DNA of 64,000 bases from Yuukianura sp. NJ FZ-2021 (GCA_046563655.1 CM102285.1:13020001-13084000), one strand, 5' to 3'. Positions 39,401 to 64,000 are shown, numbered from the stretch's first letter. The notes: generated by a model from the sequence alone, not told the origin. Numbers and translations are program-made.

Positions 39401-42400
39401 TACCTCAACGGCGTCGAACTCCAACAAGGTTCGCGATTCCGTACAACAACAGACTTTGGATTCATCAGCCTCGACATCCAATCAACGGTTTTGAACGACT
39501 CTGGAATGTACATGTGCAAAGTCAGGAATTTGGCTGGAGAAGCTATTACATCTACAACAATGCGAGTCAAACCACGTGACGGTATCGAATCCGCCAGTCT
39601 CCACCCTGAAGCTTTACCGAAAATTCAAACAATTGAAGCTCCCGCGCCACAACGACCAGCTGAGATGCCGCAGACCTTCCAACCACCCTATTTTACTCGA
39701 AATCTTACCTCATACGACAATCTTCCAGAAAATACGCATCTTCACTTGGAAGCTTTTCTGGAGCCCAAGGCAGATCCAAACCTTGGAGTCACTTGGTTCA
39801 AGAACGGCGCACCACTCGAATCTGGTTCCCGGTTCAAACCGAATTTTGACTTCGGACTGGTTACACTCGACATCAGTGGTCTCCGTGACACTGATTCTGG
39901 AATCTACACTTGCAAAGGGCGTAACCTCCATGGAGAAGCCGTAACAAGTTGCAGTATCAAGGTCACATCTTCTGGAAAAATCCAACTCCAGTCACTCCAA
40001 CCACAATCGATTGATCTTATTGCAAAATTGGAAGAACCTGTATTCAAGGAAGCTGTTCACGATGCTCCAACATTTGCCGCTCCAATTCTGTCACATCTCA
40101 ATGATCAAGATATCATGGAAGGTACGAATGCCCACTTTGAATGCACTGTAGAACCCAAGAACGATCCGAATTTGACAATCACGTGGCTCAAAAATGGAAA
40201 ACCGTTGGAAACCGGATCACGGTTTATTCCGAAATTCGATTTTGGTCAAATCACTCTCGATATTCAAAAATGTTACAAGTCAGATGAAGGAATTTATCAA
40301 GTGAAAGCAGTCAACCGAATGGGACAAGCCACAACTACTGGGACACTCAAAGTTCGGCAACTTGCTGACATTTCTCGGGATACACTGCATCCTAAGGGGG
40401 AAGAAGGACTTGAGGAAATCTTAGCAGCCGAGGGGGCCCTTGATGCCAAGGGACGTCGCCCTTCCGAGCCAGTTCCAATTTACCAAAAACCATACTGGGC
40501 TCCAGGACTCAAACCAGAATTCCACCTTAAAGAAAATAGTTTTATGCAGTTGCAAGGTCAAGTTGAACCACGAGCCGATCCGAAACTACGAATCGAATGG
40601 TTTCAAAATGGAAAACCAATTGTTTTTGGAACTCGTCATAAACTACTTTTTGACTTTGGATTTGTCAGTCTCGATGTTGAAGATGTCCATGGCAAAGATG
40701 CTGGAAACTATACTTGCCGAGCATGGAATGACTATGGAGAAGCCCTAACTTCAAGTACTGTCTACGTTGACGAAGAGGAGGGAATGGTCTTGGCCACTCA
40801 ACATCCGAAAGGAGAAGAAGGTTTGAAGAAATTGCAGGCACTTGATGCTCCTAAGGAAGGAAAACCGAAACAGGTCGCTGCGGTACCTGGCATACCGCCA
40901 AAATTCACAACGCCGTTTAAAAATCTCGACTTGGATGAAGGTGACCTTGGTCACTCCGAAGCCTGCCTCGTGCCCGTGGGCGATCCAAATATGGTTGTAA
41001 CTTGGCTCAAAGATGACGAAGAAATTCAACCCGGCGCGCGCATTCGAACTGTCTGCTCTTTTGGAATGTGTGTCATTGAAATTGAAGATATCAAACTGCT
41101 GGACGCTGGAACTTATACTTGTCACGCCAAGAATGACTACGGAGAAGACTCAGCGTCGTTCACCATCGCTGTCAAGGAATATTCATGTGGCCGTCCACCC
41201 AAATTCACCAAACAGCTGATCCCACTTGACAATTTGCGTGACCACGATTCAGCCCACTTTGAAGCAACGCTTGTCCCTGTGGGTGATCCAGATTTACACG
41301 TTTGGTGGCTCAAAGATGGCGAACCTCTACCATTATCCAGTCGAATCAAAACTGTTTACGACTTTGGATTTGTCAGCTTGGACTTGAGCGACGTCAATGA
41401 ATTGGATACAGGAGAGTATGAATGTCGCGCTAAAAACAAATTTGGAAGCGATCGCGTTCGAGCTTTTCTCCGATGCATCGGCGGACACCGTGGTGTAGAC
41501 TATGGTACGCTCCAGCCGGACGCTTATGCTCGCATTCTGGAACTGGAAGCATTTGGAAAAGAGAAGCGGGACATGACCACACTGTACAAACCTCAACCGC
41601 CTCTTTTCATTGAACATTTTCAACCGCTCGTTCTTACTGAAGGTCAGTCAGCCCACTTCGAAGCTAAGCTTATTCCCATTGGCGATCCAAATTTGAAGGT
41701 CACTTGGTATCGAGATGGAGTCGAACTCAAATCAGGACACAAGTACAGAATCTTCCATGACTTTGGTATTGTCATCCTCGATGTTCTCTACTGCTACGAA
41801 GAAGATAGCGGAGTCTACGAATGTCGAGCTGTCAATGACTTAGGGTCAGATCTAACCAAAGCTACGCTGCAATGCAGCTCCAAACCAGGATTAATCTTAG
41901 ATCCACAAATTCCAGTATCAATGATGGGAGGATTGGACAAAATCCGCACTCTAGAACAACCGAAACATAAACACCAGCGACCAGACGTAGCTAACACACG
42001 TGCGCCAGTCTTTGTTTCACCTTTGACCGACGTCGAAGCATCTGAAGGCGACAGTATTCACTTGGAAGCTCGCATTACACCAACCGATGATCCGAAACTC
42101 AAAATCCAATGGTACAAAAATGGTCAACCACTTCGAGAATCCTCTCGATTTAAATATTTCAATGACTTTGGATTTGTCGTTTTTGAAATTACGTCACTAA
42201 CGGAAAATGACATTGGAGAATACACTGTTCGAGCTGTCAATGAATTCGGAGATGCCGTTACTAGCTGTAAAGTCGTTTGTCAAGGCAAAACTGGAATGGA
42301 CACTCGATCTCACCTTAAATCTACCGGACTTGAGAAAATTGCAAATCTAGAAGGACTTGGAGCTCCCGGCGAAGGTCAACAAGCTACCATGGATGACACT

Positions 42401-45400
42401 TCCGGAAGTCCTCCAACACTAACACCACTTGAAAATTTGGAACTTCCAGAAAACGCTACAGCTAGATTTACATGTAACTTGTCTCCTGTCACTGCCAACA
42501 CCACTGTAAATTGGTTCCATAATGGCAAACCCCTCACAACCGGATCGCGGATCAGAACGATCAATGAATTTGGTAAGGTCATCCTCGATGTAAACCGGAT
42601 CCTGGCCCGGGACAGCGGAATTTACACTTGTAAAGCTACCAATCCACATGGAACAACAATGACTGAAGCTAAACTGCAAGTCATCAGCAAGAAATCGCTG
42701 ATTCTGGAACCTCAAGTACCAAACTCAGCTATTGCTATTCAGAACCTAGAAGACAGCCTTATCAAACAAGTATCAACAGTAGAAGAAGAAACTGTCCAGA
42801 AAGCACCAATTTTCGTTACGGAGCTGTCCGATGTCACGGTAGCTGAAGGGGAGTCGTTTCAGCTGTCAACCCGAATCGAGCCGATTAATGACACAACTTT
42901 ACGTGTCGAATGGTACTACAATGGAAAACCGATCATGTCTAGCTCCCGCGTTCACACGACGAATGATTTTGGATTTGTGAGTCTCGACCTTGACTATGCC
43001 TACTTGCGCGACAGCGGAGAATACTTGTGTCGCGTAATCAACAAATGGGGATTCAGTACCACTAGGTGCAAGGTAACAATTAAAAGCAAGACGGAAAAGA
43101 GTAATGTTAGCTCCAAAGTGATCGAGAAGTTCAACCAATTGGAACGTGGAACTGTTCGGGATGTCAAGGAAGACGTATCGGAAGAAGTAGCTCCACGATT
43201 CACAAGACATATCATACCAGCTTCCTTGACAGAGGGCGATCGACTACACTTTGAAACTCAAGTTGAACCTAAACGTGATGCTAACTTGGTAGTCGAATGG
43301 TTCTTGAATGGCAAACCTTTAGTAACTGGCTCAAGATTTCACACTATGAATGAATTTGGTCACATCACACTTGACATCAACTCAATCAAACCGGAAGACA
43401 CGGGCGTCTATGAATGTCGTGCAAGAAACCTAGTTGGAGAGGATGTCACGAAAGCTCAAGTGACGGTCAAGCGGTCACCGTCGATTGTCCTCCAGAACCA
43501 ACTGCCAAAAGGAATGAAACGAAATGAAACATTGCTTCAAATGGAGGGAACAATTAAAAAGTACACATCAGACGTGGTTTTGACGGAAGAGGATTTGTAT
43601 GATGTCGAGAAGCAACAACCACCCAGATTTGTAACGCAAATTCAAAGTTTTGAAAGTCTCAAGGAGAAGGACAGCGTCAAGATGGATTGTCAGCTGGCTC
43701 CCGTTGGTGATCCAAATATGAAAGTGGAATGGTTTAAAGATGGAAAGCTGTTAACGCACAGTACGTAAATAATTAAAAATTAACTTGTGCTAACTAAATT
43801 ATTAATCAATTTTTCGACATTATAGAAAACCGCTTGACCCCGATTTACGACTTTGGATACATCGCCCTCAACTTTAACTGGATCTACCCAGAAGACGCTG
43901 GCGTTTATGTGTGTCGAGCGACAAACTTATGTAAGATACCGAAACAAGCTGCGATTTTACATTACAACGACTAAATATTGGTCAATTAGTAATTCAATAT
44001 ACTCAATAATGTAACCTCTCTCTTCTAGATGGTTCTGACACAACGACAGCAACAATTACGACAATCACAAATCCCAACATAATCTACGACTCCCAATTGC
44101 CAGCCTCCGTACAGGACCACACGATAAGCCGAATTCACGAAATCGAAGCACCAAGACCAGCTAAACATGTTCCAGAAGAAGTCAAAGAACGATCGGCTCC
44201 ACTATTTGTATCCCAACCGGAACCAGTCGAAGTATTTGAGGGTGACTGGGCTAAGTTCGTATGCCGAATCAAAGGAGTTCCGCGACCAAGGGTTCTATGG
44301 ATCGTCAACGGCAAAACTGTGTTGAACGTTAGTCTTTGCTAGGCATTTTGAAATATACTTCCAGTATTTTTAACCGTCCAAACTATTTTCAGGGTACTCG
44401 CTACAAGCTAACCTACGATGGAATGTATCACCTCGATATACCCAAGACACGACTCTACGACGCTGGTGAAGTCAAAGTAATCGCCAAGAACATACTGGGT
44501 GAGACTTCAGCTACTACAACTCTCTCCGTAATTAATCGACACGACTTTAGAGGAGCCCTTACCAAAACATCTCGAGAAGGTAAGTCCATTTTTCAAAATT
44601 TCGAAATACTAAGGTATAGAACAGAACAATTTGTTGACCTCGTGTGTCGTCGTCAGTCTCACTTGTCTCATTCGAATTACTCCAAGTACGATACGTAGGA
44701 CTTAGGTCCTAGAAGATAGAAATAGAACGATAGTCTTACCTTTGTCAGAAGTCTCGTGACCCAGTCTGAGTTCCTTGTTTTCTTTTCCCGTTCTACCCTT
44801 CGTCTCTTTAGCCTGGGACAAGTCGATCAACCAGGAAGAATCCCTTACGGACCTTGAGAAGACATTGCGTGACGGGAACCTTCTACGACCTACGGAACAC
44901 ACAAAGGCCAAACAAGAGGTCAAGGACACGGAATGGCAAAAAGTACTCAAGAACAAGCAGTTTGATGACGAGTACTACCAGAGACTGAAAGAGGTGATTT
45001 CATTTGAACTGAATCGTCAAGTACTTTCTACTTACCTTTCGATGCTTGTAACTTCTGGTTTGTGCTTTCTCACCTCCAATTTAGCACTAAACACTGCAAA
45101 TAAAAAGTCGAGATGAGCTTAATTAACTAATTAATTAACTGACGAAGTTAAAAAAAACAAAACATAGAAGTGAGGGAACATGAAGGACGAAAAGAGAGAA
45201 TGAAAAAATGTAAACAAAAACAAAGCCAAGTCATGTGATTCTTCAAACTTTAAATTTCCCGCGCGAAACTTTTTTTTTCAAATTCGTCTCACTTTCCCCC
45301 AAAAAGTAAACTTGGATTCTTTGACCATTAAGTTTAGAAATTTTGTAAAAACCGAGCGCGTGAGACCGCCGTTTATGTTCCACTTTTTTTAAAAACCATT

Positions 45401-48400
45401 TTTAAAATTTTCCTTTAAAAAAAACGGAACATTCCAGAAGGATAAAGACTCATTCGGAATAGCGACTGTCGTCATGCCTGGGAGTTTAAAATTGGTTAAT
45501 TAAGCGGGTGACAAAAGTACTTTTTCTCCTTCTCTAAAACTTTCACCGGGAGCTCTTCGAGCGGGAGAAAGTAGGAAATGGCGGGTTTTGAAATAAACGG
45601 CCTACACAAAGACAAAGAATAATTTGGCAATAAAATTGTAGGGTTTAATGGTTATAAAATTCAACTTTCCCAGGAAATCACCAACCACCACACATTCTAT
45701 CTTTTTAGTTAGTATTAGTTCCAGCGCTTGTAGATTTCCAGCGTCACTGGTTCCATTTCTACAGGAATGTCGTAAATTTTTATTCCATAGACAAATTGTA
45801 TTCCATTTTCTCCTTGCGGCATTGGCATTATTATTGGAATCCCAGAGAGAAAAGGCAAACGCGCAACTTTCCACTTTCTCCCGCATTAGAACTTACCTCC
45901 TCCCTTCCAGAACAACCCGTGTGGATCCTCATTTGGTGTCATTAGCTCCAGCATTTGTCTTCCCTTCCAGAAACTCTCTGTCTCTGAAAGCTCATAGCTT
46001 GCTTCGTAGTTTTCTCCTAGAATTAATGAGAAGTTATCGATTGAAAAAGTAAGGGAAAAGAAAATGAAAGTCTCCCTGCCTTCTCTTACCCGCCTTTGGA
46101 ATGGATGACTCTGGGAATAGAACGCGTGCCTTTATTGTTTCCCTTTGCTGCTTTTGTTAGGTTAGTCTAACGTTAGGGTTAGGTTTAACTTTCCCTAGTT
46201 TACTTTCACCACTGAAAAAGATAGGCATAGAGTAAAAGTAAAAGGGAGGAGGGTGTGGGAGGGGAGGTGTAGGAGGCACACGACCAAAAATGAATTACAG
46301 AATCAGAGCACGAATTCCAACGGAGAGGCTTATTGCGTGGAGCTTTCTCTTTTTTTTTCAAAATGGAAAATGAAAATAAAGTTATTTCGGTTTTTATGAG
46401 AGAAAAACGGAAAAGCTGTGCTTGCCTGTTTTTTAGTTCAGAAAAACGGAAAATGGATTTTTTCAACCCTCCCTCCTCTCCTAAATCTCAACGCGCGTAG
46501 CCAATCATTTCTAATTTCTAGAAAAGAAAAGAAGGGAAAAAAGTTTTTGGAAAGAAAAATCCATGTCGTATTTCTTTTGAAAAAGAAAAAAAAATGCAAT
46601 AAAATCAAATAAGATTGCAGCCATTTTTCTTTCACTTTTATTTCTTTTTTGGAAAGTAGGAAATGGAAAGCTTCCTCTTTTTTCTTTTATACAATATCTC
46701 TAAAAGACGGGGAAAAAAATCACGGGAAATCTTGGAGAAAGTCATTTTCATCACTTACTTTCAAAATTTCCGATTTCATTCCTTTCCAGCTTTTCGGCTT
46801 TTAAAAAAAGCCACAGTTTCCTTGCCGCATGAACAAATTATTTCCAAAGTTGGCACCGAAAAAGAAATTGAACACACAGATATCCTGCCGTTTTGATCTT
46901 TGAGACAAAATCGTGTCCAATTTTGAAAAGCAACTTTGTACATTTTCAAAATAAAATTGGACATTTTGAAACAGCTTGTTTTTACTGCTTTCCTCCTTTA
47001 ACTGCACTAATTTTCCTGAGTGGTTTTCATCCCTTCGATTGAAAAAAAAAGTGAACTTTCTCTTACTTTTTTTTGTACTGTTTTCAGCTCGAAGCTTCAT
47101 CGCATCTGACCAAGGACCAGGAACGACTCAAGGAAGCCATCAAAGCCAAATTGAATCCCACAGAAATTTCTAAACCGAAACCAGAAGAGGACCGGGCGAA
47201 GAAAATGATTGAAGAAGCAGCTCGAAATATCAATAAAAGGGAAGTCAGCGACGTCTTCATCAAATCCGGTATTGAGCAACTGACCGAAAAGGAGCGTGAG
47301 AGTGACATGAAAATTGAAAAAGAGAAAATTGCCATGAAAGCTCAGCAACCCAGTTGGCCCCCTCCGGAAATCCAGTCAAAAGAAGCCAGGACCTACGACA
47401 AATCAAGTGTCACCGAAGTCTCCAAACAGACACAAAAAGAGGTACTTTCATCGACTCTTGAAATTGAACTTCACCCTAATGCAAAAAAAAGCACAACTTA
47501 AATAGCTTAGAATTTCAAACAGAAAAATGTGTACAATTTCAGATTCGGAAGATCAGAAAACACCTAAATATGATATTTTTTTTCTGTTTTTAGAGACAGG
47601 GAGACTTGCTGCTAACTCGAAAAATAAAATCAACGGAAACGACTGAAACTGAGTCCAAGGGAGCAACAATTGAGACAGTAGTGAAAGGAGTACCAGGTCA
47701 ACCTACTCCTAAGGGCACTCCACCCATGTTCACCAAGAAGCTTCAACCGATTTATACGACAGAGAAGTCTTCTATTCAATTTGAAGCAGAATTTACGGGT
47801 ACAGGCCCAACGATTTCATGGTTCCGAGAAGACTACGAGATTCAGAACTCCAATGACTTCAAGATTCTTACTACCGGAAATAAATCTGTTTTGGTTGTTA
47901 AGGAGGTAAGCGACCAAAGGAAATTAGGCTCAGAATTAGTAGAACGTCTCTTCTCTTTTGGAATAATTCACAGAAAAGGGAAACATAAAACAAAAGCCTC
48001 AAGATTTAGGGTGAAAAGCTTTATGCTGGTGCAGTACTGCTTCTGTTTGTTCAGGATCAGAAACAGTACACACAGGGTTAGATTACAACCGAAGGGTACA
48101 GCACCTTTCCCTTCACTTTCACTTTCCACGAGGATAATTCTGGGTGTTTTGTGATTCAGCTCGAGGCGGAGAGCTTCAATTTAGCTCCTTTCTCTCTCCT
48201 TTTCTTAAAATTAATGATGATTACTTGGGAAATAAATTAGAAAGAGCCAGAAATTAATGAGAGACTCAAAAACATAAAACACAGACCCTGAAATTCATGA
48301 ATTTCAAGAATTCATTTTCAGAAATTCGGTTTGTAAAGAAATCCAAAGAAACGCGGATTACCACTTAGTTTTTTGAAAAAGTTTTTGGAAGATTAAATTT

Positions 48401-51400
48401 TAAACCAAAGATGTTTGAGACCTCAGATTCCAGATTTTCCGGGTATTGCAGCTTCCAGGGTTAAGATAGAGATTCTGAATTTGAAAATTGGAAATTTAAT
48501 TAAACTGTCAATTTCAGGTGTTTTTGGAAGACTCAGGAACTTTTAGTTGTGTAGCCACAAATGCCTTTGGCAAAGCCAAAACGACAACGAATCTCATTGT
48601 GGATAAACCAAAAGAATCTGGACCACCGAACTTTACCAAAACGCTCAAGGACGTAAGAACGATGCAAGGGAACAATGTCAACTTTGAAGTGGAACTCACC
48701 TCTAAAGAACCAATCACAATTCAGTGGACCAAGGTACAGAAAAATCCTAGAGAAAATGGATTTTCCAAAACGAGAAAAAAGAACTTTCCAATTTCAAAAA
48801 GAAAACTACTTTCACCCCAAAATTTTCAGTTGAAAGAACTGTAACTAACAGTTTTCAAAATTTTCTATATTTGTAACCAATTACTTTTTCATTTTCAGAA
48901 TGGATCACCTATTAAACCATCTCAGCGCCACAGACTGTCTCAATTTAAGAACAAAGCTACTCTGTCCATTACGAACGCTCAGGAGAGTGACAGCGGAACA
49001 ATTGAAGTCATCGGGTCAAACTCCAAGGGCGACACGACTTGCTCCGCTGAACTAATCGTCGATGTTAAACCGGAACCAAAGAAGCCCACTCCAAAAGCAC
49101 CTACTACATCTGCTCCAGTCGTCACTGTGCCACTGCCTGTGTCCACTGAATGTCTCGACGGAGGGTCAATTTTGCTCAAATGTGGATTCGATGGACAACC
49201 GGGTAAGTTTAAGGAGGGGGGATGAATTACTCTACCCAAGGGGGGATGAGGGGAATTAATACTCAAGGGACTCTGTCAAAGTAAGGAACACGACAGACCC
49301 ATAGTTTACTACTTTCTGACCCTAAAATGTCTTTTCTGTTGTCTTTTTTTGCTCTAGAACCGTCTGTCACATGGAAAAAGGATGGAAAAGCCCTCAAACC
49401 CACAAAACTTTTACAGATTTACAAGTCCGAGTCACACAACTACCTCAAAATATCCAAAGTTTTCCCAGAGGATGAAGGGCTTTATGAGGCTACAGGACAG
49501 AATGACACGGGTTCAGCGTCCACTCAATGCAAACTGACTGTGAAAAGTAAGACATCTGCCAACATTTGGAAATTTGATGATGAAATGGTCAACTTTAGCA
49601 TATAGGAATTTCAAGTTCATGGAAAACTCTAATTTTTTGATTTTTTTTTGTACCATTTTTCTAGCAAAAGCAACCGGAGCCCCTCCAACAGTAACCCCCC
49701 TCAAGGACATTACTGTTGAAGAAGGGGAACCTGCAGAATTTAAAAGCACGATTAGCGGATTCCCATTTACGAAAGTTCAATGGCTCCGAGAGGGGGTTGT
49801 GATTCCGGAAGCGGAAGATTTCAGTGTAAGTGAAAGTGAAAGTCTTTTCGAAATTCATTAAAACCCGCGCGTCCCTTTTCATTTTCCATTTTCATGGTGT
49901 GAAGAAAACTCATCAAAAGAGAAAATTTTGAATTAGAATTTCTCATAGTCCTTCCAGCAATATTAAGAGACTCAGACTAGAACTTTTGAATTTGAACAGA
50001 CAAAAGGGAAAGTTCAGACAAAACTTTCTCTCTCTAGTCTCTCCAAATTTATTTCTCAAACTCCCGCCATGGAATCCGCCATAGTCTCGAAATGAAAATT
50101 TATTTTTGGTCTCCTATTCCCAACTGAAAATTTTGATGGAGTTATTAGATTTTGGGGAGCAATAAATTAGGTCGTTGAGGATTACTACTACAGAAAGAAC
50201 AGAGCAGGGGGAGGGGGGCGTTTGTTGAAATAGGGGGGGGGTTGCTCGAAATGACCGTTCCCCTCCTGTTATTTTTTGCGCAGTATGAGTGAGTGTAGGC
50301 GGGGCCTATTTTGGTTTAGTTTATCTGCATTGCGGATAACAGTTCTTTTGAGGAGGGAAAGAACAACTTTCCCCGGGAGTAATGGAAGGACTAGGGGACG
50401 GTTCTTTCTATTTAATACTTTCTCACGCACGCATTTCACTATACCTTGAGTTGGGGATGCTGGAATGCTTGTTCCATCTTCCAGTAGTACTGTTGTGGAA
50501 CCGATGTCCAGAAAATGATGCTTTCCCCTGCTCACTTGACCATTTCGATCTCCCCGGGTAGGCTGGGCGGAGCTTTTAGTTTCTACAGAAATAAAACAGA
50601 CAGTTACAAAAGATACAAGGGGAAAACGAGGGAGATTCTCATATTTGCTGTGGGATTTATTTCGATTTTTCCATGTATCTGCAATGCGGAAGTTTTTCCA
50701 AATCCTGTCTTATTATTAAGTCCCGGACATTTCGAAAGTTTAAACCCAGGGATTAGCAATAATTAACTTTGGACTCTCAACAATATATGAAATTTGACAC
50801 TAAAAATGAACATGTTCTGATCCCATTTAGATGACAACGACACAAAATTCATCGGCTCTTCACATTAAGGAGACTTATGAAGAAGATTCAGGAAAGTTCA
50901 CATTACGCGTGACAAATGCACACGGTCAAGTAGAAACTTCAGCCAAGCTTGTAGTCGAAAGTAAGGACTAGTTAAATCAAACGGCTAAACCAAACTAAAT
51001 TGGAAACTATTTAGGATATGCATTTTAGAACGCTATGCTTTCACGCTTTGTCAGCAATTTATTAGTCAAAAATGGGACCCCTTGTGCACCAAACACATAT
51101 TGTTCACATAAAGAACGATTCCTTTAGTCCAAGAAAAATTGCAAAGGTTAGGCTTAAAGTTAATGCAAAAACATTGATTCCCGCAATATGTTATGCTTAA
51201 ATGAAATTATAGCTTGTTAGAATTACTTAGAGTTTCCTGCTACGCTTTGTATTGTTGCTTCTAAGAAAAAGAAAATGGAGTGTGAAAAGTTTAAAATTAT
51301 GCAGCTAATAAATTCGAAAATAAAGCTATACCTACATTAAAATGANNNNNNNNNNNNNNNNNNNNNNNNNNNNNNNNNNNNNNNNNNNNNNNNNNNNNNN

Positions 51401-54400
51401 NNNNNNNNNNNNNNNNNNNNNNNNNNNNNNNNNNNNNNNNNNNNNCGTGTATTTCATTCGCCAACTCCATTTTGGATGTTAATTTCTTTCGTTTTTCACC
51501 TTAATCCTCCATTTCCTTTTTCTAAGGGAAGCCAGTACCTTGGGAGTTAAAATTATTAGTAGCGACTTTCACTGGGTAGTTTTTGATAAGCTGAGGAATA
51601 GATTCCAGTTCTACAGATTTCCGCGGTAAACTCTTGCACAACTACTAGCGGCAAACGCGTGCTTTGTTGCGAATAGAACAAACTAGCTGAACAGTTACAC
51701 ATTCATACGCGGAAGTTAATTAGGCACCTTTTGTTAACACTCCTAGAAAAAAGAACCAGCATTCCAGAAGGAAAAAACACTAAGGTAGATGGGAGAGATT
51801 CCGCGCCACCTACACCTTTCCAAGCCGCCAAAAAGCAGGCAGCATTGCCTCGACCTTCAATTGAGCAAGATAGCTCAGCGGAAATGGGTTCTGTACCCCA
51901 AACAACACTTGCCATCCGTGACTCACATCTTCCAATCCTCACTCCGCAGCAAAGAAAAGTCGTCACTGCTCCTGAACTTCAACAGCAAGTTTTAGAAAAC
52001 ATACCTGCCATAATCGAGGTTACTCAAGAGTCTGAGCTGGTTACATTTACTCCTCGCGGTCAAATGGTAGTTACAAAACTCAAAAAAATTAGACGAGAAG
52101 GTGTCAAGGAGCAAGAAGTGGAGCTTGAAGTCACCACGGAGGGTCAAACTAGAAAACTTTCAGTCCCCGAGGGATTAGAAGTCGCGATACCAACACCGTC
52201 AGGAGAGAAACTCAAGTTCAAAGTAAAGAAGCCAAAACGTGGCCAAAAGGATGACACCGTCGAAATTGAACAGTCGTTAAATGAAAAGACATTTGTTGTC
52301 ACAGCAGTCTCACCTGGGGAATTAATTAAATTCACCCCACAAGGCCTCAAAACTGTGAAGAAAATGTCAAAAAAGCCGAGCTTCCCAGAACCAAGAAGAA
52401 GTCAAAGTTGAGGAAGCTGTATCTTTCATCACTGAAGCAACTCAAGAATCAGAGCTGGTTACCTTCACACCCCAAGGAAGAAAAGTTGTAACTAAAGTCA
52501 AGAAGGTACGCCGAGAAGGAGATACTACGAAACAAATTGAGTTGGAGGTAACTACAGAGGGTCAAACCAGACGGCTTTCTGTAGTTGAAGATTCTGAAAT
52601 TTCTGTTCCAACTCCATCTGGCGAGAAATTAAAATTAAAAGTACGGAAGCCTAAACCAGAAGAAAGTGAAGATCAAGTTGACATGGAACAATCAGTCAAC
52701 GAGCAAGTATTTGTTACTACTGCTATTTCTCCTGGAGAGCTTATTGAATTCACTCCTCAGGGCTTAAAGACTGTCAAGAAACGACCCAAGAAACCAACTG
52801 TTCCAGAAATCAAAACAGAAGAAATTCCAGAAATTATTCCGGTGATTACAGAAGTTACACAAGAGTCTGAACTAGTCACCTTTACTCCTCAAGGCCGAAA
52901 GGTTGTCACAAAAGTCAAAAAGATTCGACGAGAAGGTGTCAAAGACCAGGATGTAGAACTTGAAGTCACAACCGAAGGTCAAACACGTAAACTTTCAATT
53001 ACTGAGGGCTCAGAAATTACATTACCTACGCCTTCTGGAGAAAAATTGAAAGTCAAAGTCAAGAAACCAAAACCTGGACAAAAAGAGGACACGGTTGAAG
53101 TTGAACAGTCCATCAACGAGCAGACATTTGTTGTAACTGCAGTTTCACCTGGAGAATTGATTGAATTTACACCTCAGGGTCTCAAGACGGTCAAGAAGAA
53201 ACCAAAGAAGCCACGGGTTCCAGAATCAAAAGAAGAAGAAGTCAAAGTTGAGGAAGCTGTATCTTTCATCACTGAAGCTACTCAAGAATCTGAGCTGGTT
53301 ACATTCACCCCTCAAGGAAGAAAAGTCGTAACAAAAGTGAAGAAGGTACGCCGAGAAGGAGATACAACGAAGCAAATTGAGTTGGAGGTAACTACGGAGG
53401 GTCAAACTAGAAGGCTTTCTGTAGTCGAAGATTCCGAAATTTCTGTTCCAACTCCATCTGGTGAGAAATTAAAATTGAAAGTACGGAAGCCTAAACCAGA
53501 CGAAAGTGAAGATCAAGTTGACATGGAACAATCAGTCAACGAGCAAGTATTTGTTACTACTGCTATTTCTCCTGGAGAGCTTATTGAATTCACTCCTCAG
53601 GGCTTAAAGACTGTCAAGAAACGACCCAAGAAACCAACTGTTCCAGAAATCAAAACAGAAGAAATTCCAGAAATTATTCCGGTGATTACAGAAGTTACAC
53701 AAGAGTCTGAACTAGTCACCTTTACTCCTCAAGGCCGAAAGGTTGTCACAAAAGTCAAAAAGATTCGACGAGAAGGTGTCAAAGACCAGGATGTGGAACT
53801 TGAAGTCACAACCGAAGGTCAAACACGTAAACTTTCAATTACTGAGGGCTCAGAAATTACATTACCTACGCCTTCTGGAGAAAAATTGAAAGTCAAAGTC
53901 AAGAAACCAAAACCTGGACAAAAAGAGGACACGGTTGAAGTTGAACAGTCCATCAACGAGCAGACATTTGTTGTAACTGCAGTTTCACCTGGAGAATTGA
54001 TTGAATTTACACCTCAGGGTCTCAAGACGGTCAAGAAGAAACCAAAGAAGCCACGGGTTCCAGAATCAAAAGAAGAAGAAGTCAAAGTTGAGGAAGCTGT
54101 ATCTTTCATCACTGAAGCTACCCAAGAATCTGAGCTGGTTACATTCACCCCTCAAGGAAGAAAAGTCATAACAAAAGTGAAGAAGGTACGCCGAGAAGGA
54201 GATACAACGAAGCAGATTGAGTTGGAGGTAACTACTGAAGGTCAAACCAGAAGGCTTTCTGTAGTCGAAGATTCTGAAATTTCTGTTCCAACTCCATCTG
54301 GTGAAAAATTAAAATTAAAAGTAAGGAAGCCTAAACCAGACGAAAGTGAAGATCAAGTTGACATGGAACAATCCGTCAACGAGCAAGTATTTGTTACTAC

Positions 54401-57400
54401 TGCTATTTCTCCTGGAGAGCTTATTGAATTCACTCCTCAGGGCTTGAAGACTGTCAAGAAACGACCCAAGAAACCAACTGTTCCAGAAATCAAAACAGAA
54501 GAAATTCCAGAAATTATTCCGGTGATTACAGAAGTTACACAAGAGTCTGAACTAGTCACCTTTACTCCTCAAGGCCGAAAGGTTGTCACAAAAGTCAAAA
54601 AGATTCGACGAGAAGGTGTCAAAGACCAGGATGTGGAACTTGAAGTCACAACCGAAGGTCAAACACGTAAACTTTCAATTACTGAGGGCTCAGAAATTAC
54701 ATTACCTACGCCTTCTGGAGAAAAATTGAAAGTCAAAGTCAAGAAACCAAAACCTGGACAAAAAGAGGACACGGTTGAAGTTGAACAGTCCATCAACGAG
54801 CAGACATTTGTTGTAACTGCAGTTTCACCTGGAGAATTGATTGAATTTACACCTCAGGGTCTCAAGACGGTCAAGAAGAAACCAAAGAAGCCACGGGTTC
54901 CAGAATCAAAAGAAGAAGAAGTCAAAGTTGAGGAAGCTGTATCTTTCATCACTGAAGCTACCCAAGAATCTGAGCTGGTTACATTCACCCCTCAAGGAAG
55001 AAAAGTCGTAACAAAAGTGAAGAAGGTACGCCGAGAAGGAGATACAACGAAGCAGATTGAGTTGGAAGTAACTACTGAAGGTCAAACCAGAAGGCTTTCT
55101 GTAGTCGAAGATTCTGAAATTTCTGTTCCAACTCCATCTGGTGAAAAATTAAAATTAAAAGTAAGGAAGCCTAAACCAGACGAAAGTGAAGATCAAGTTG
55201 ACATGGAACAATCCGTCAACGAGCAAGTATTTGTTACTACTGCTATTTCTCCTGGAGAGCTTATTGAATTCACTCCTCAGGGCTTGAAGACTGTCAAGAA
55301 ACGACCCAAGAAACCAACTGTTCCAGAAATCAAAACAGAAGAAATTCCAGAAATTATTCCGGTGATTACAGAAGTTACACAAGAGTCTGAACTAGTCACC
55401 TTTACTCCTCAAGGCCGAAAGGTTGTCACAAAAGTCAAAAAGATTCGACGAGAAGGTGTCAAAGACCAGGATGTGGAACTTGAAGTCACAACCGAAGGTC
55501 AAACACGTAAACTTTCAATTACTGAGGGCTCAGAAATTACATTACCTACGCCTTCTGGAGAAAAATTGAAAGTCAAAGTCAAGAAACCAAAACCTGGACA
55601 AAAAGAGGACACGGTTGAAGTTGAACAGTCCATCAACGAGCAGACATTTGTTGTAACTGCAGTTTCACCTGGAGAATTGATTGAATTTACACCTCAGGGT
55701 CTCAAGACGGTCAAGAAGAAACCAAAGAAGCCACGGGTTCCAGAATCAAAAGAAGAAGAAGTCAAAGTTGAGGAAGCTGTATCTTTCATCACTGAAGCTA
55801 CCCAAGAATCTGAGCTGGTTACATTCACCCCTCAAGGAAGAAAAGTCATAACAAAAGTGAAGAAGGTACGCCGAGAAGGAGATACAACGAAGCAGATTGA
55901 ATTGGAAGTAACTACTGAAGGTCAAACCAGAAGGCTTTCTGTAGTCGAAGATTCTGAAATTTCTGTTCCAACTCCATCTGGTGAAAAATTAAAATTAAAA
56001 GTAAGGAAGCCTAAACCAGACGAAAGTGAAGATCAAGTTGACATGGAACAATCAGTCAACGAGCAAGTATTTGTTACTACTGCTATTTCTCCTGGAGAGC
56101 TTATTGAATTCACTCCTCAGGGCTTAAAGACTGTCAAGAAACGACCCAAGAAACCAACTGTTCCAGAAATCAAAACAGAAGAAATTCCAGAAATTATTCC
56201 GGTGATTACAGAAGTTACACAAGAGTCTGAACTAGTCACCTTTACTCCTCAAGGCCGAAAGGTTGTCACAAAAGTCAAAAAGATTCGACGAGAAGGTGTC
56301 AAAGACCAGGATGTAGAACTTGAAGTCACAACCGAAGGTCAAACACGTAAACTTTCAATTACTGAGGGCTCAGAAATTACATTACCTACGCCTTCTGGAG
56401 AAAAATTGAAAGTCAAAGTCAAGAAACCAAAACCTGGACAAAAAGAGGACACGGTTGAAGTTGAACAGTCCATCAACGAGCAGACATTTGTTGTAACTGC
56501 AGTTTCACCTGGAGAATTGATTGAATTTACACCTCAGGGTCTCAAGACGGTCAAGAAGAAACCAAAGAAGCCACGGGTTCCAGAATCAAAAGAAGAAGAA
56601 GTCAAAGTTGAGGAAGCTGTATCTTTCATCACTGAAGCTACCCAAGAATCTGAGCTGGTTACATTCACCCCTCAAGGAAGAAAAGTCATAACAAAAGTGA
56701 AGAAGGTACGCCGAGAAGGAGATACAACGAAGCAGATTGAGTTGGAGGTAACTACTGAAGGTCAAACCAGAAGGCTTTCTGTAGTCGAAGATTCTGAAAT
56801 TTCTGTTCCAACTCCATCTGGTGAGAAATTAAAATTGAAAGTACGGAAGCCTAAACCAGACGAAAGTGAAGATCAAGTTGACATGGAACAATCAGTCAAC
56901 GAGCAAGTATTTGTTACTACTGCTATTTCTCCTGGAGAGCTTATTGAATTCACTCCTCAGGGCTTAAAGACTGTCAAGAAACGACCCAAGAAACCAACTG
57001 TTCCAGAAATCAAAACAGAAGAAATTCCAGAAATTATTCCGGTGATTACAGAAGTTACACAAGAGTCTGAACTAGTCACCTTTACTCCTCAAGGCCGAAA
57101 GGTTGTCACAAAAGTCAAAAAGATTCGACGAGAAGGTGTCAAAGACCAGGATGTAGAACTTGAAGTCACAACCGAAGGTCAAACACGTAAACTTTCAATT
57201 ACTGAGGGCTCAGAAATTACATTACCTACGCCTTCTGGAGAAAAATTGAAAGTCAAAGTCAAGAAACCAAAACCTGGACAAAAAGAGGACACGGTTGAAG
57301 TTGAACAGTCCATCAACGAGCAGACATTTGTTGTAACTGCAGTTTCACCTGGAGAATTGATTGAATTTACACCTCAGGGTCTCAAGACGGTCAAGAAGAA

Positions 57401-60400
57401 ACCAAAGAAGCCACGGGTTCCAGAATCAAAAGAAGAAGAAGTCAAAGTTGAGGAAGCTGTATCTTTCATCACTGAAGCTACCCAAGAATCTGAGCTGGTT
57501 ACATTCACCCCTCAAGGAAGAAAAGTCATAACAAAAGTGAAGAAGGTACGCCGAGAAGGAGATACAACGAAGCAGATTGAGTTGGAAGTAACTACTGAAG
57601 GTCAAACCAGAAGGCTTTCTGTAGTCGAAGATTCCGAAATTTCTGTTCCAACTCCATCTGGTGAGAAATTAAAATTGAAAGTACGGAAGCCTAAACCAGA
57701 CGAAAGTGAAGATCAAGTTGACATGGAACAATCAGTCAACGAGCAAGTATTTGTTACTACTGCTATTTCTCCTGGAGAGCTTATTGAATTCACTCCTCAG
57801 GGCTTAAAGACTGTCAAGAAACGACCCAAGAAACCAACTGTTCCAGAAATCAAAACAGAAGAAATTCCAGAAATTATTCCGGTGATTACAGAAGTTACAC
57901 AAGAGTCTGAACTAGTCACCTTTACTCCTCAAGGCCGAAAGGTTGTCACAAAAGTCAAAAAGATTCGACGAGAAGGTGTCAAAGACCAGGATGTAGAACT
58001 TGAAGTCACAACCGAAGGTCAAACACGTAAACTTTCAATTACTGAGGGCTCAGAAATTACATTACCTACGCCTTCTGGAGAAAAATTGAAAGTCAAAGTC
58101 AAGAAACCAAAACCTGGACAAAAAGAGGACACGGTTGAAGTTGAACAGTCCATCAACGAGCAGACATTTGTTGTAACTGCAGTTTCACCTGGAGAATTGA
58201 TTGAATTTACACCTCAGGGTCTCAAGACGGTCAAGAAGAAACCAAAGAAGCCACGGGTTCCAGAATCAAAAGAAGAAGAAGTCAAAGTTGAGGAAGCTGT
58301 ATCTTTCATCACTGAAGCTACCCAAGAATCTGAGCTGGTTACATTCACCCCTCAAGGAAGAAAAGTCATAACAAAAGTGAAGAAGGTACGCCGAGAAGGA
58401 GATACAACGAAGCAAATTGAGTTGGAGGTAACTACTGAAGGTCAAACCAGAAGGCTTTCTGTAGTCGAAGATTCCGAAATTTCTGTTCCAACTCCATCTG
58501 GTGAGAAATTAAAATTGAAAGTACGGAAGCCTAAACCAGACGAAAGTGAAGATCAAGTTGACATGGAACAATCAGTCAACGAGCAAGTATTTGTTACTAC
58601 TGCTATTTCTCCTGGAGAGCTTATTGAATTCACTCCTCAGGGCTTAAAGACTGTCAAGAAACGACCCAAGAAACCAACTGTTCCAGAAATCAAAACAGAA
58701 GAAATTCCAGAAATTATTCCGGTGATTACAGAAGTTACACAAGAGTCTGAACTAGTCACCTTTACTCCTCAAGGCCGAAAGGTTGTCACAAAAGTCAAAA
58801 AGATTCGACGAGAAGGTGTCAAAGACCAGGATGTAGAACTTGAAGTCACAACCGAAGGTCAAACACGTAAACTTTCAATTACTGAGGGCTCAGAAATTAC
58901 ATTACCTACGCCTTCTGGAGAAAAATTGAAAGTCAAAGTCAAGAAACCAAAACCTGGACAAAAAGAGGACACGGTTGAAGTTGAACAGTCCATCAACGAG
59001 CAGACATTTGTTGTAACTGCAGTTTCACCTGGAGAATTAATTGAATTTACACCTCAGGGTCTCAAGACGGTCAAAAAGAAACCAAAGAAGCCACGGGTTC
59101 CAGAATCAAAAGAAGAAGAAGTCAAAGTTGAGGAAGCTGTATCTTTCATCACTGAAGCTACTCAAGAATCTGAGCTGGTTACATTCACCCCTCAAGGAAG
59201 AAAAGTTGTAACCAAAGTCAAAAAGGTACGCCGAGAAGGAGATACTACAAAGCAAATTGAGTTGGAGGTAACTACTGAAGGTCAAACAAGAAGGCTTTCT
59301 GTTGTCGAAGATTCCGAAATTTCTGTTCCAACTCCATCTGGTGAGAAATTAAAATTGAAAGTACGGAAGCCTAAACCAGATGAAAGTGAAGATCAAGTTG
59401 ACATGGAACAATCAGTCAACGAGCAAGTATTTGTTACTACTGCTATTTCTCCTGGAGAGCTTATTGAATTCACTCCTCAGGGCTTAAAGACTGTCAAGAA
59501 ACGACCCAAGAAACCAACTGTTCCAGAAATCAAAACAGAAGAAATTCCAGAAATTATTCCGGTGATTACAGAAGTTACACAAGAGTCTGAACTAGTCACC
59601 TTTACTCCTCAAGGCCGAAAGGTTGTCACAAAAGTCAAAAAGATTCGACGAGAAGGTGTCAAAGACCAGGATGTAGAACTTGAAGTCACAACCGAAGGTC
59701 AAACACGTAAACTTTCAATTACTGAGGGCTCAGAAATTACATTACCTACGCCTTCTGGAGAAAAATTGAAAGTCAAAGTCAAGAAACCAAAACCTGGACA
59801 AAAAGAGGACACGGTTGAAGTTGAACAGTCCATCAACGAGCAGACATTTGTTGTAACTGCAGTTTCACCTGGAGAATTGATTGAATTTACACCTCAGGGT
59901 CTCAAGACGGTCAAGAAGAAACCAAAGAAGCCACGGGTTCCAGAATCAAAAGAAGAAGAAGTCAAAGTTGAGGAAGCTGTATCTTTCATCACTGAAGCTA
60001 CCCAAGAATCTGAGCTGGTTACATTCACCCCTCAAGGAAGAAAAGTCATAACAAAAGTGAAGAAGGTACGCCGAGAAGGAGATACAACGAAGCAGATTGA
60101 GTTGGAGGTAACTACTGAAGGTCAAACCAGAAGGCTTTCTGTAGTCGAAGATTCCGAAATTTCTGTTCCAACTCCATCTGGTGAGAAATTAAAATTGAAA
60201 GTACGGAAGCCTAAACCAGACGAAAGTGAAGATCAAGTTGACATGGAACAATCAGTCAACGAGCAAGTATTTGTTACTACTGCTATTTCTCCTGGAGAGC
60301 TTATTGAATTCACTCCTCAGGGCTTAAAGACTGTCAAGAAACGACCCAAGAAACCAACTGTTCCAGAAATCAAAACAGAAGAAATTCCAGAAATTATTCC

Positions 60401-63400
60401 GGTGATTACAGAAGTTACACAAGAGTCTGAACTAGTCACCTTTACTCCTCAAGGCCGAAAGGTTGTCACAAAAGTCAAAAAGATTCGACGAGAAGGTGTC
60501 AAAGACCAGGATGTAGAACTTGAAGTCACAACCGAAGGTCAAACACGTAAACTTTCAATTACTGAGGGCTCAGAAATTACATTACCTACGCCTTCTGGAG
60601 AAAAATTGAAAGTCAAAGTCAAGAAACCAAAACCTGGACAAAAAGAGGACACGGTTGAAGTTGAACAGTCCATCAACGAGCAGACATTTGTTGTAACTGC
60701 AGTTTCACCTGGAGAATTGATTGAATTTACACCTCAGGGTCTCAAGACGGTCAAGAAGAAACCAAAGAAGCCACGGGTTCCAGAATCAAAAGAAGAAGAA
60801 GTCAAAGTTGAGGAAGCTGTATCTTTCATCACTGAAGCTACCCAAGAATCTGAGCTGGTTACATTCACCCCTCAAGGAAGAAAAGTCATAACAAAAGTGA
60901 AGAAGGTACGCCGAGAAGGAGATACAACGAAGCAGATTGAGTTGGAAGTAACTACTGAAGGTCAAACCAGAAGGCTTTCTGTAGTCGAAGATTCTGAAAT
61001 TTCTGTTCCAACTCCATCTGGTGAGAAATTAAAATTGAAAGTACGGAAGCCTAAACCAGACGAAAGTGAAGATCAAGTTGACATGGAACAATCAGTCAAC
61101 GAGCAAGTATTTGTTACTACTGCTATTTCTCCTGGAGAGCTTATTGAATTCACTCCTCAGGGCTTAAAGACTGTCAAGAAACGACCCAAGAAACCAACTG
61201 TTCCAGAAATCAAAACAGAAGAAATTCCAGAAATTATTCCGGTGATTACAGAAGTTACACAAGAGTCTGAACTAGTCACCTTTACTCCTCAAGGCCGAAA
61301 GGTTGTCACAAAAGTCAAAAAGATTCGACGAGAAGGTGTCAAAGACCAGGATGTGGAACTTGAAGTCACAACCGAAGGTCAAACACGTAAACTTTCAATT
61401 ACTGAGGGCTCAGAAATTACATTACCTACGCCTTCTGGAGAAAAATTGAAAGTCAAAGTCAAGAAACCAAAACCTGGACAAAAAGAGGACACGGTTGAAG
61501 TTGAACAGTCCATCAACGAGCAGACATTTGTTGTAACTGCAGTTTCACCTGGAGAATTGATTGAATTTACACCTCAGGGTCTCAAGACGGTCAAGAAGAA
61601 ACCAAAGAAGCCACGGGTTCCAGAATCAAAAGAAGAAGAAGTCAAAGTTGAGGAAGCTGTATCTTTCATCACTGAAGCTACCCAAGAATCTGAGCTGGTT
61701 ACATTCACCCCTCAAGGAAGAAAAGTCATAACAAAAGTGAAGAAGGTACGCCGAGAAGGAGATACAACGAAGCAGATTGAGTTGGAGGTAACTACGGAGG
61801 GTCAAACCAGAAGGCTTTCTGTAGTCGAAGATTCCGAAATTTCTGTTCCAACTCCATCTGGTGAGAAATTAAAATTGAAAGTACGGAAGCCTAAACCAGA
61901 CGAAAGTGAAGATCAAGTTGACATGGAACAATCAGTCAACGAGCAAGTATTTGTTACTACTGCTATTTCTCCTGGAGAGCTTATTGAATTCACTCCTCAG
62001 GGCTTAAAGACTGTCAAGAAACGACCCAAGAAACCAACTGTTCCAGAAATCAAAACAGAAGAAATTCCAGAAATAATTCCGGTGATTACAGAAGTTACGC
62101 AAGAATCTGAACTAGTAACCTTTACTCCTCAAGGCCGAAAGGTTGTCACAAAAGTCAAAAAGATTCGACGAGAAGGTGTCAAAGACCAGGATGTAGAACT
62201 TGAAGTAACAACCGAAGGTCAAACACGTAAACTTTCAATTACTGAGGGCTCAGAAATTACATTACCTACGCCTTCTGGAGAAAAATTGAAAGTCAAAGTC
62301 AAGAAACCAAAACCTGGACAAAAAGAGGACACGGTTGAAGTTGAACAGTCCATCAACGAGCAGACATTTGTTGTAACTGCAGTTTCACCTGGAGAATTGA
62401 TTGAATTTACACCTCAGGGTCTCAAGACGGTCAAGAAGAAACCAAAGAAGCCACGGGTTCCAGAATCAAAAGAAGAAGAAGTCAAAGTTGAGGAAGCTGT
62501 ATCTTTCATCACTGAAGCTACTCAAGAATCTGAGCTGGTTACATTCACCCCTCAAGGAAGAAAAGTCGTAACAAAAGTGAAGAAGGTACGCCGAGAAGGA
62601 GATACAACGAAGCAGATTGAGTTGGAAGTAACTACTGAAGGTCAAACCAGAAGGCTTTCTGTAGTCGAAGATTCCGAAATTTCTGTTCCAACTCCATCTG
62701 GTGAGAAATTAAAATTGAAAGTACGGAAGCCTAAACCAGATGAAAGTGAAGATCAAGTTGACATGGAACAATCAGTCAACGAGCAAGTATTTGTTACTAC
62801 TGCTATTTCTCCTGGAGAGCTTATTGAATTCACTCCTCAGGGCTTAAAGACTGTCAAGAAACGACCCAAGAAACCAACTGTTCCAGAAATCAAAACAGAA
62901 GAAATTCCAGAAATTATTCCGGTGATTACAGAAGTTACACAAGAGTCTGAACTAGTCACCTTTACTCCTCAAGGCCGAAAGGTTGTCACAAAAGTCAAAA
63001 AGATTCGACGAGAAGGTGTCAAAGACCAGGATGTAGAACTTGAAGTCACAACCGAAGGTCAAACACGTAAACTTTCAATTACTGAGGGCTCAGAAATTAC
63101 ATTACCTACGCCTTCTGGAGAAAAATTGAAAGTCAAAGTCAAGAAACCAAAACCTGGACAAAAAGAGGACACGGTTGAAGTTGAACAGTCCATCAACGAG
63201 CAGACATTTGTTGTAACTGCAGTTTCACCTGGAGAATTAATTGAATTTACACCTCAGGGTCTCAAGACGGTCAAAAAGAAACCAAAGAAGCCACGGGTTC
63301 CAGAATCAAAAGAAGAAGAAGTCAAAGTTGAGGAAGCTGTATCTTTCATCACTGAAGCTACTCAAGAATCTGAGCTGGTTACATTCACCCCTCAAGGAAG

Positions 63401-64000
63401 AAAAGTTGTAACCAAAGTCAAAAAGGTACGCCGAGAAGGAGATACTACAAAGCAAATTGAGTTGGAGGTAACTACTGAAGGTCAAACAAGAAGGCTTTCT
63501 GTTGTCGAAGATTCCGAAATTTCTGTTCCAACTCCATCTGGTGAGAAATTAAAATTGAAAGTACGGAAGCCTAAACCAGATGAAAGTGAAGATCAAGTTG
63601 ACATGGAACAATCAGTCAACGAGCAAGTATTTGTTACTACTGCTATTTCTCCTGGAGAGCTTATTGAATTCACTCCTCAGGGCTTAAAGACTGTCAAGAA
63701 ACGACCCAAGAAACCAACTGTTCCAGAAATCAAAACAGAAGAAATTCCAGAAATTATTCCGGTGATTACAGAAGTTACACAAGAGTCTGAACTAGTCACC
63801 TTTACTCCTCAAGGCCGAAAGGTTGTCACAAAAGTCAAAAAGATTCGACGAGAAGGTGTCAAAGACCAGGATGTAGAACTTGAAGTCACAACCGAAGGTC
63901 AAACACGTAAACTTTCAATTACTGAGGGCTCAGAAATTACATTACCTACGCCTTCTGGAGAAAAATTGAAAGTCAAAGTCAAGAAACCAAAACCTGGACA
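30465..64000 (+). CDS. sls: Sallimus/kettin/titin-family giant muscle protein, 5' portion (continues past window end)
   Basis: Exons 30465-30546, 31064-31397 (poly-Q), 31577-31707, 31799-32859, 33028-33640, 34218-43760, 43826-43930, 44029-44327, 44393-44579, 44812-44993, 47088-47441, 47594-47905, 48518-48733, 48899-49202, 49358-49546, 49665-49825, 50831-50960 and 51747->64000, with consistent phases. Ig1 PPIFTQIFRNTRFASG, kettin-type Ig repeats (HFEARLEP..DP.L.VEW.KDG....DFGYVSLDI...EDSG.Y.C.A.N..G), RYKLTYDGMYHLDIPKTR and post-kettin QKERQGDLLLTRKIKSTETTETE all resemble Drosophila Sls. A frame break occurs near 52394-52411. Confidence 0.93.
34218..43760 (+). CDS. sls: Giant 9543-nt exon of sls: 24 complete kettin-type I-set Ig domains plus the start of a 25th, with linkers
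   Basis: Continuous ORF (track 34202-43768) with acceptor TTTACAG ending at 34217 and donor GTACGT at 43761. Ig starts (PPRF/APVF/KPRF-type) were counted by eye. Confidence 0.95.
51346..51445. other. Assembly gap (100 N, probably of unknown true size) within an sls intron
   Basis: Run of exactly 100 N. Confidence 0.99.
52401..64000 (+). repeat. sls: Coding tandem repeat: 840-bp unit (280 aa, two ~140-aa modules A and B), 13 full copies plus 680 nt, open at the window end; one diverged B-type module precedes it at ~51985-52400
   Basis: Units start at 52401+840n. The frame beginning GTC AAA GTT GAG has no stop to 64000 (absent from the ORF track, presumably because it runs off the window end). 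Copy-to-copy differences are almost all synonymous. Confidence 0.95.

Follow-up and report, generated by a model that had tools for sequence, protein, structure and literature searches.

A tandem array of candidate beta-rich modules, PEVK-like in composition, in an I-band titin gene of Yuukianura sp.

The springs of titin set passive stiffness and sarcomere length, and here we describe an array of tandem protein modules, termed A and B, that fills the 3' end of a 64,000-nt stretch of DNA from Yuukianura sp. NJ FZ-2021 (GCA_046563655.1 CM102285.1:13020001-13084000; one strand, the whole stretch being called the window from here on), within a gene which, as judged from its sequence, is an I-band titin of the sallimus/I-connectin type, the type that also encodes kettin. 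In vertebrates the I-band spring of titin is hierarchical, tandem immunoglobulin (Ig) beads and flexible PEVK segments (rich in Pro, Glu, Val and Lys, the sum of which is written P+E+V+K below) being placed in series, and classical PEVK is composed of PPAK-type repeats of about 26-28 residues plus poly-E. Among arthropods, crayfish I-connectin is reported by Fukuzawa et al. in 2001, a study cited by PMC9886281 and PMC12198301, to be an I-band titin with a kettin region, tandem repeats and PEVK regions; its repeat and PEVK regions reportedly extend in giant sarcomeres, and the repeats are reportedly of 68 and 71 residues. C. elegans TTN-1 reportedly carries repeat regions named PEVT, CEEEI, AAPLE, BLUE and DispRep, and these segments are described as intrinsically disordered in the title of the study by Forbes et al. 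of 2010, which PMC12063666 cites. Lineage-specific repeats are a known kind of component in the springs of invertebrate titins, I-connectin and TTN-1 being the examples; what is new at this locus is a strongly constrained, probably folded beta module lacking a described family, set in a highly homogeneous A/B array.

For Drosophila, PMC2185597 and PMC9886281 describe sallimus (Sls) as kettin Ig domains with spacers, then Ig exons, a long P/E/V/K-rich region and Ig domains after it. Kettin has 35 Ig domains with spacers between them according to PMC3207145, and is part of the D-Titin/sls gene according to PMC2185597, which gives P+E+V+K as 58.5% for PEVK-1 and 52.4% for PEVK-2. PMC12063666 reports that deletion of PEVK-rich sls exons leaves larval sarcomeres ~1.5 um shorter, that insertion of ~4 kb in sls makes them ~1 um longer, and that PEVK domains are defined in that comparative study as 250-aa windows with more than 40% P+E+V+K; PEVK unfolding and Ig unfolding are both discussed in PMC9886281. 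The locus under study has the same layout, with a kettin-type exon, Ig exons and then the long P/E/V/K-rich array, while the Ig domains that follow such a region are seen here in a related locus (L001, see below).

The array occupies 52404..63998 on the + strand and runs off the window, as seen from its open reading frame (ORF), Tandem Repeats Finder, motif anchoring and RNA contigs. Its frame (52359..63998, standard code) encodes 3880 aa without a stop and is still open at the 3' end of the window; Tandem Repeats Finder returned a single array at 52393-63994, with a period of 417 and 27.6 copies, and splitting by a conserved-motif anchor gave 28 modules from 52404, 27 of them whole and the last cut by the end of the window. 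Module lengths alternate strictly between 139 aa (A; reference module 53244..53660, +) and 141 aa (B; reference module 53661..54083, +), and because of this alternation the true repeat unit is the A+B pair of 840 bp, present in 13.8 copies. A and B are identical at 102/141 residues (72%) and at 69% of their DNA. No Trp, Cys, Tyr or His occurs in the modules and Phe is present three to four times in each; P+E+V+K makes up 46.8% of A and 51.8% of B, with 7.9% proline. The composition is that of a strong polyampholyte, 35% charged with a net charge of about zero, in which acidic and basic blocks alternate and basic K/P-rich linkers are spaced every 140 residues. The AT skew of the array coding strand (52001-64000) is 0.26-0.28, A over T, compared with 0.03-0.17 in the neighbouring 40 kb, a strong skew that follows from codons rich in Lys, Glu and Thr.

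An earlier note on the window, made by reading the sequence, had described a titin-family gene with at least 28 modules continuing past the window, A and B about 70% identical by hand count, free of Trp, Cys, Tyr and His and with P+E+V+K near 47% in A, and each of these points agrees with the computed values. Its array start at 51985 held in part: there is a module there (51983-52393), read in a frame other than that of the array. Its statement that the modules stand instead of Ig, Fn3 and classical PEVK was not sustained, as Ig domains lie upstream, and also downstream in L001, and by composition the array belongs to the PEVK class because all of its 250-aa windows (3616/3616, at 45.6-51.6% P+E+V+K) pass the >40% criterion of PMC12063666; it would be drawn as 'PEVK' under current practice. 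No window of the kettin-type exon is above that threshold (0/2939). Compared with vertebrate PEVK, the array differs in its periods of 139/141 and ~47 aa and in its proline content, and no PPAK-type family was among the Pfam matches of the module at E<=10. The values of 47-52% in the array stand against 58.5% and 52.4% in PEVK-1 and PEVK-2 of Sls (PMC2185597), and the difference from Sls PEVK lies in the near-perfect 139/141-aa tandem array, the residue-level constraint and the predicted beta fold.

Comparison of the 14 super-repeats, that is the A+B pairs, yielded 39 variable columns, 36 at codon position 3 and three at position 1; only two change a residue (one V/I, one E/D), and any two pairs differ at no more than 19/840 bases. 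When public sequencing runs were compared with the window, all 19 differences listed inside the array fell at codon position 3 and 18 of the 19 were synonymous, 234 further rows being outside this count. Nei-Gojobori estimates among A, B, the first module (51983-52393) and the module of L001 gave pS, the proportion of differing synonymous sites, of 0.69-0.78, which is saturated, and pN, its nonsynonymous counterpart, of 0.11-0.21; the ratio of the corrected nonsynonymous and synonymous distances (dN/dS) is 0.053-0.067 in the four module pairs with finite dS, dS being beyond correction for A vs B and for A vs the first module. Since synonymous sites between A and B are saturated, the two are ancient paralogues, and since the 14 pairs are nearly identical though A and B diverged anciently, the A+B pair has been recently amplified or homogenised. 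Contigs of a metatranscriptome run (X6) lie on 51818-51995 and on the array at 52519-53243. The array is transcribed coding DNA under strong purifying selection, and its 840-bp homogeneity over ancient A and B types clearly exemplifies concerted evolution within a coding exon. As read from the codons, a dN/dS of ~0.05-0.07 at saturated synonymous divergence indicates constraint on residues, not on composition. Moreover, super-repeats 9 and 14 have one set of synonymous variants in common, and 8 and 13 another; this higher-order pattern suggests that five 840-bp units (4.2 kb) were recently duplicated together.

Searches for relatives of the module returned very little, in line with the earlier note, which had not recognised it. 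No Pfam family came near its cut-off, neither with A+B at E<=1 nor with five members at E<=10, and the I-set and fn3 profiles gave no match at these same thresholds; the sole Ig-named Pfam row was Ig_NUP210_15th, which reached 12 bits where 27 is its cut-off, while in the control scan I-set was found upstream of the array at E 2.4e-137. Nothing related was found among PDB sequences, the best E values being 0.64 (single sequence) and 0.032 (profile), both to unrelated proteins, and the array had no match among proteins of 491-2000 aa and of 2134-6790 aa. A search of 1.84 billion representatives gave only two matches, both unnamed singleton fragments (P0002, 57% identity, E 9e-28; P0003, 36%, E 2e-10); proteins above 6790 aa, such as full-length arthropod Sls, were covered by this search only, and its Sls content was not checked. 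No usable match came from the ESM Atlas. Against 120 titin/kettin proteins the module profile reached a best E of 0.12, a result that says little because these are mostly kettin-length isoforms. The fact that the kettin-type exon finds eukaryotic titins in the protein collection lends some weight to the negative module searches. By keyword, without sequence matching or subscription journals, no published description of such a module was found.

A metagenome scan gave 97 pattern matches, one of which is a true relative, the locus L001. Its first letters fall within a B-like module (identity 87% for protein, 76% for DNA), from which it continues in frame through a unique, K/E/P-rich sequence of ~490 aa with 39% PEVK; next, after a frame change, comes another unique stretch (47% PEVK) ending in an I-set domain, and further 3' there are two more I-set exons, for three I-set domains in all. 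The end of the array in L001 is thus flanked by PEVK-like sequence and then by Ig domains, which is the Sls layout. In its unique K/E/P-rich sequence (600-2250) a short motif like the turn and basic strand of the module, 'x-F-x-P ... L-K-P ... V-K-K', appears at least three times (first ORF, residues ~205 and ~521; second ORF, residue ~151); the copies could be remnants of sub-repeats or instances of a linear motif.

The module is itself periodic: a turn motif, TPxG, recurs at module residues 22, 70 and 117 and divides it into three related sub-repeats of ~47 aa (first vs third, z 8.7, 0/500 shuffles as good; first vs second, z 4.5, 1/500; second vs third, z 1.1, 75/500). For a single A module, AlphaFold2 with an alignment of five rows returned a mean predicted local distance difference test score (pLDDT) of 76.2 and a predicted template modelling score (pTM) of 0.68; its five models had pLDDT of 76/72/68/68/64, and 24 residues reached at least 90. 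The prediction is all-beta, with 11 strands within residues 9-124 of a core at ~8-124, core blocks at 78-88 and ends (1-6 and 125-132) below 50. In the A+B model (6 rows, mean pLDDT 65) the 11-strand pattern appears twice, the B core (~150-255) repeating the strand pattern of A in blocks of 66-83, and the linkers 118-149 and 260-280 fall below 50; the low-confidence segments of both models are the Lys/Pro/Glu linkers only. Identity to A in predicted strands and elsewhere was 77/69, 70/60, 75/60, 55/42 and 32/35%, so that the strands were higher in four of five comparisons. Proline takes up 1/74 strand residues vs 9/65 others in the A model, and Pro and Gly positions coincide with predicted turns, both of these being circular checks, since the model itself defined the strands. 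As modelled, the module is most likely a small all-beta domain of ~115 residues and 11 strands, built from three ~47-aa units, each of them most likely laid out as a hairpin, the TPxG turn and a lysine-rich strand.

The earlier note had proposed beads of ~115 aa joined by linkers of ~25 aa; the predicted cores and low-confidence linkers fit this picture, with the amendment that the bead consists of three sub-repeats. Among the outcomes that it had named as counting against it were a uniformly disordered prediction and a lack of transcripts. Neither of these was seen, as AlphaFold2 gives 11-strand cores with only termini and linkers below 50, and RNA contigs lie on the array, from a run which has spliced joints upstream too.

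The best structural match of the predicted module was FAIM (Fas apoptosis inhibitory molecule). Against the single module, the N-terminal domain of FAIM (FAIM-NTD; fold of PDB 3mx7 / 2kw1) scored Z 7.8 (rmsd, root-mean-square deviation, 2.5 A over 82/90 residues) and the C-terminal domain (FAIM-CTD) Z 6.9 (rmsd 3.4 A, 83/89 residues), the next row being at 6.0, and against the two-module model FAIM scored Z 7.4 and 6.5; all of these are under 8, below which a structural Z may reflect a common arrangement only. Both FAIM and, by prediction, the module are small all-beta domains; they differ in that sequence identity is 8% and the module has 11 strands, with ~82 residues aligned. The FAIM family was absent from the Pfam scans and no FAIM chain was found by the PDB profile search, both at E<=10. 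Foldseek with the single module gave no hit at E<=1e-3 in the PDB, where the best were retinoid/fatty-acid-binding barrels at a template modelling (TM) score of ~0.3; a Foldseek search of viral structures was also empty at this threshold. Sialidase and other beta-propeller rows obtained with the two-module model against the PDB were rejected, with TM below 0.2 and repeat matching on repeat. The 50 structure-search rows shown have no title of titin-type Ig or Fn3, an absence which cannot exclude a fold, and in the rows for complexes with antigen-binding (Fab) or single-chain variable (scFv) antibody fragments the match fell on the partner chain.

By its position and by analogy, the array could be the main part of an arthropod-type I-band titin that extends in the I-band, with modules that are likely folded acting as a serial spring, a reading to which we give an even chance; the sarcomeric position and the mechanics would follow from place in the gene and from comparison with other titins. 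At low force, the Lys/Pro/Glu-rich linkers (~23-30 residues) would straighten first; as the force rises, the beta modules, poor in aromatics, would unfold one at a time and refold upon release, and the number of modules would set I-band reach and passive stiffness. With an assumed textbook value of 0.36-0.38 nm/residue, the 28 modules fully unfolded would add ~1.4 um of contour and the linkers alone ~0.25 um. Module number would be expected to tune I-band length because changes of PEVK-rich sls exons alter larval sarcomere length in Drosophila (PMC12063666). In its predicted design, beads alternating with flexible segments, the array recalls vertebrate titin; the difference is that the module beads have no I-set or fn3 match and no Trp, Tyr or Cys, and are predicted to have 11 strands vs 7-9. 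The likeness to crayfish I-connectin, as reported, is in the lineage-specific tandem repeats of an arthropod I-band titin. With TTN-1, as reported, the array shares long lineage-specific tandem repeats in an I-band titin homologue, and departs from it in that the TTN-1 repeats are described as disordered whereas AlphaFold2 predicts ordered beta modules here.

Several observations weigh against a spring of folded modules in this gene. The alignments given to AlphaFold2 were shallow (5-6 rows, two of them from outside the window), and two of the five two-module models had mean pLDDT of only 52 and 48. On a charge-hydropathy plot the modules fall on the boundary, A lying towards disorder and B towards folded proteins, and a test of hydrophobic beta-moment, of low power, was not significant (z 1.6 and 0.9, with z 2.0 for an Ig control). 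The lack of Trp, Tyr, Cys and His and the scarcity of Phe point in the same direction. As for the gene, RNA support comes as contigs from one metatranscriptome run, none of which links the array with an Ig exon, and between the first module and the array, at ~52392, the frame is broken.

The strongest alternative, unlikely in our opinion, is that the array is a disordered, PEVK-like polyampholyte acting as an entropic spring, in which AlphaFold2 would be over-confident on V/T/K/E-rich repeats and what is conserved would be binding or charge-pattern motifs with no fold. P+E+V+K in every window of the array is close to the 52.4% of D-Titin PEVK-2 (PMC2185597), charged blocks alternate, the charge-hydropathy position is borderline, and short sub-repeats of ~47 aa are like other titin spring repeats; the beta-moment test and the two low-confidence models agree with this explanation, and as the 'F-x-P...LKP..VKK' motif is found in non-repeat sequence of L001 it may be a linear motif. 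On the other hand, a dN/dS in the range given above is constraint at the level of residues, the pTM and core pLDDT of the single module are those of an ordered prediction, low confidence is limited to the linkers, and proline, just 8%, is confined to turns and linkers, the latter in the model and hence circular. Taking both sides together, we lean slightly towards modules that fold, a view that depends on the predicted models.

A bolder version of the folded reading, somewhat short of an even chance, is that a new, mechanically active all-beta domain family would serve as the main I-band spring of an arthropod titin in place of random-coil PEVK, each domain possibly being a compact meander of three ~47-aa hairpin units with a distantly FAIM-like shape. 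If the modules are folded, the spring would lengthen in steps, domain after domain unfolding, and not as a featureless entropic chain, and single-molecule mechanics would gain a new small domain to work on. The array passes the composition-only PEVK label and yet has residue-level constraint and a predicted beta fold; should this hold true, some regions of invertebrate titins that are now called 'PEVK' only for their composition may contain folded domains in arrays, and these would respond differently to force.

It is improbable, in our estimate, that the array is instead a periodic scaffold whose Lys-rich linkers or module faces bind actin or another filament, setting geometry and not acting as a spring. 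The very regular spacing, the strong sequence constraint and the basic K/P-rich linkers every 140 residues would suit such a function, and kettin spacer motifs have been proposed as actin-binding sites (PMC3207145); nevertheless, the modules show no likeness to kettin spacers (profile best E 0.12) or to a Pfam actin-binding family, and a location after the kettin region matches the spring part of Sls (PMC9886281).

The sequencing runs, compared as contigs with the window region 44000-53243, bear on the integrity of the locus. An assembly gap of 100 N (51346..51445, unstranded) lies between the Ig exons and the array. A 681-nt contig from DNA run X1 crosses it, matching 50796-51345 and then 51446-51574 with just 'CT' between, for a real gap of ~2 nt; because this contig spans the gap, the Ig exons and the array form one continuous stretch, with the reservation that X1 is possibly the source sample, in which case the bridging is no independent evidence. 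In run X4, filed under a different organism label, one contig 'goes back 840', and the tandem period is therefore seen in other data as well. In X1 and X4, contig depth summed over the array was ~10-100x the depth in the bins beside it, which is not a copy number and was not used.

The notion of an assembly artefact, a satellite with a chance open frame or a dead exon outside any protein, which could appeal to the gap just upstream, to the frame break and to the near identity of the copies, is close to refuted by 3880 codons without a stop, almost purely synonymous variation, the bridging DNA contig, the 840-bp period under another organism label, RNA contigs on the array and the module-bearing frame of L001 that leads on to Ig domains.

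The frame break separates the array from the ORF 51677..52411, which holds unique sequence and the first, diverged B-like module (51677..52393, +; module at 51983-52393) and differs in frame from that of the array (52359..). This module is 65% identical to A, with a dN/dS of 0.063 vs B, and its junction with the array (~52392; 52385-52400) is short by 5 nt when compared with the regular B-to-A junctions. Because the first module is as constrained as the others, the break more likely stems, as far as the sequence tells, from an indel error where AAG runs are frequent, or from a splice that went unrecognised, than from a dead copy. No X6 RNA contig crosses it, and RNA cover is absent over 52034-52342 in this run, to which we give no weight. 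A contig of X1 joins 52393 to 52425, a 31-nt skip that would restore the frame; it is annotated 'between: not known' and was not used as evidence. Another joint, in an X6 RNA contig, links 52461 to 52836 with a skip of 374 nt that is not a multiple of three and has the non-canonical ends CC..TT; rather than a splice, it probably reflects a hop of the assembly from one repeated word to another, or else a variant unit.

Upstream of the array and on the same strand lie the Ig exons of the host gene. The N-terminal ones (31563..33792, +, with bounds approximate from open frames) are recognised by their I-set matches, the ORF 31777..32886 having four I-set stretches (E 1.3e-55) and the ORF 33028..33792 two (E 1e-26). 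They are followed by a giant kettin-type exon (34202..43768, +) of 3188 aa with 24 I-set stretches, its Ig domains split by spacers at a density of about one I-set domain per 133 residues, and then by further Ig and unique exons (44010..49861, +), with I-set-matching ORFs at 44010..44342, 47594..48154, 48500..48844, 48845..49225, 49285..49605 and 49544..49861. Two introns here (44992-47085 and 49202-49356) are supported by GT..AG joints of X6 RNA, 44991->47086 and 49201->49357.

Residues 1-900 of the kettin-type exon found 1413 relatives at E<=1e-3, and among the best 120 of these the named ones are mostly titin, sallimus, kettin, ketn-1 or Ig-like/I-set domain proteins; this, together with the kettin-type exon, is why the gene is taken as an I-band titin. 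In the same best 120, identity was mostly 42-46% to named insects and crustaceans, with outlier rows for two insects (33% and 36%) and a copepod (37%), against 32-40% for chelicerates, 28-34% for nematodes and 34% for a priapulid; by these identities the kettin region is closest to that of mandibulate arthropods.

Just 5' of the first Ig exons there is a Gln-rich open frame with long Q runs (31051-31704, +). Elsewhere in the window, several ORFs at 12453-15795 (-) have, by eye, pairs of C2H2 zinc fingers of the Spalt/Sall type, and ORFs at 7245-8709 (+) resemble, also by eye, exons of a BRO1-domain-type protein.

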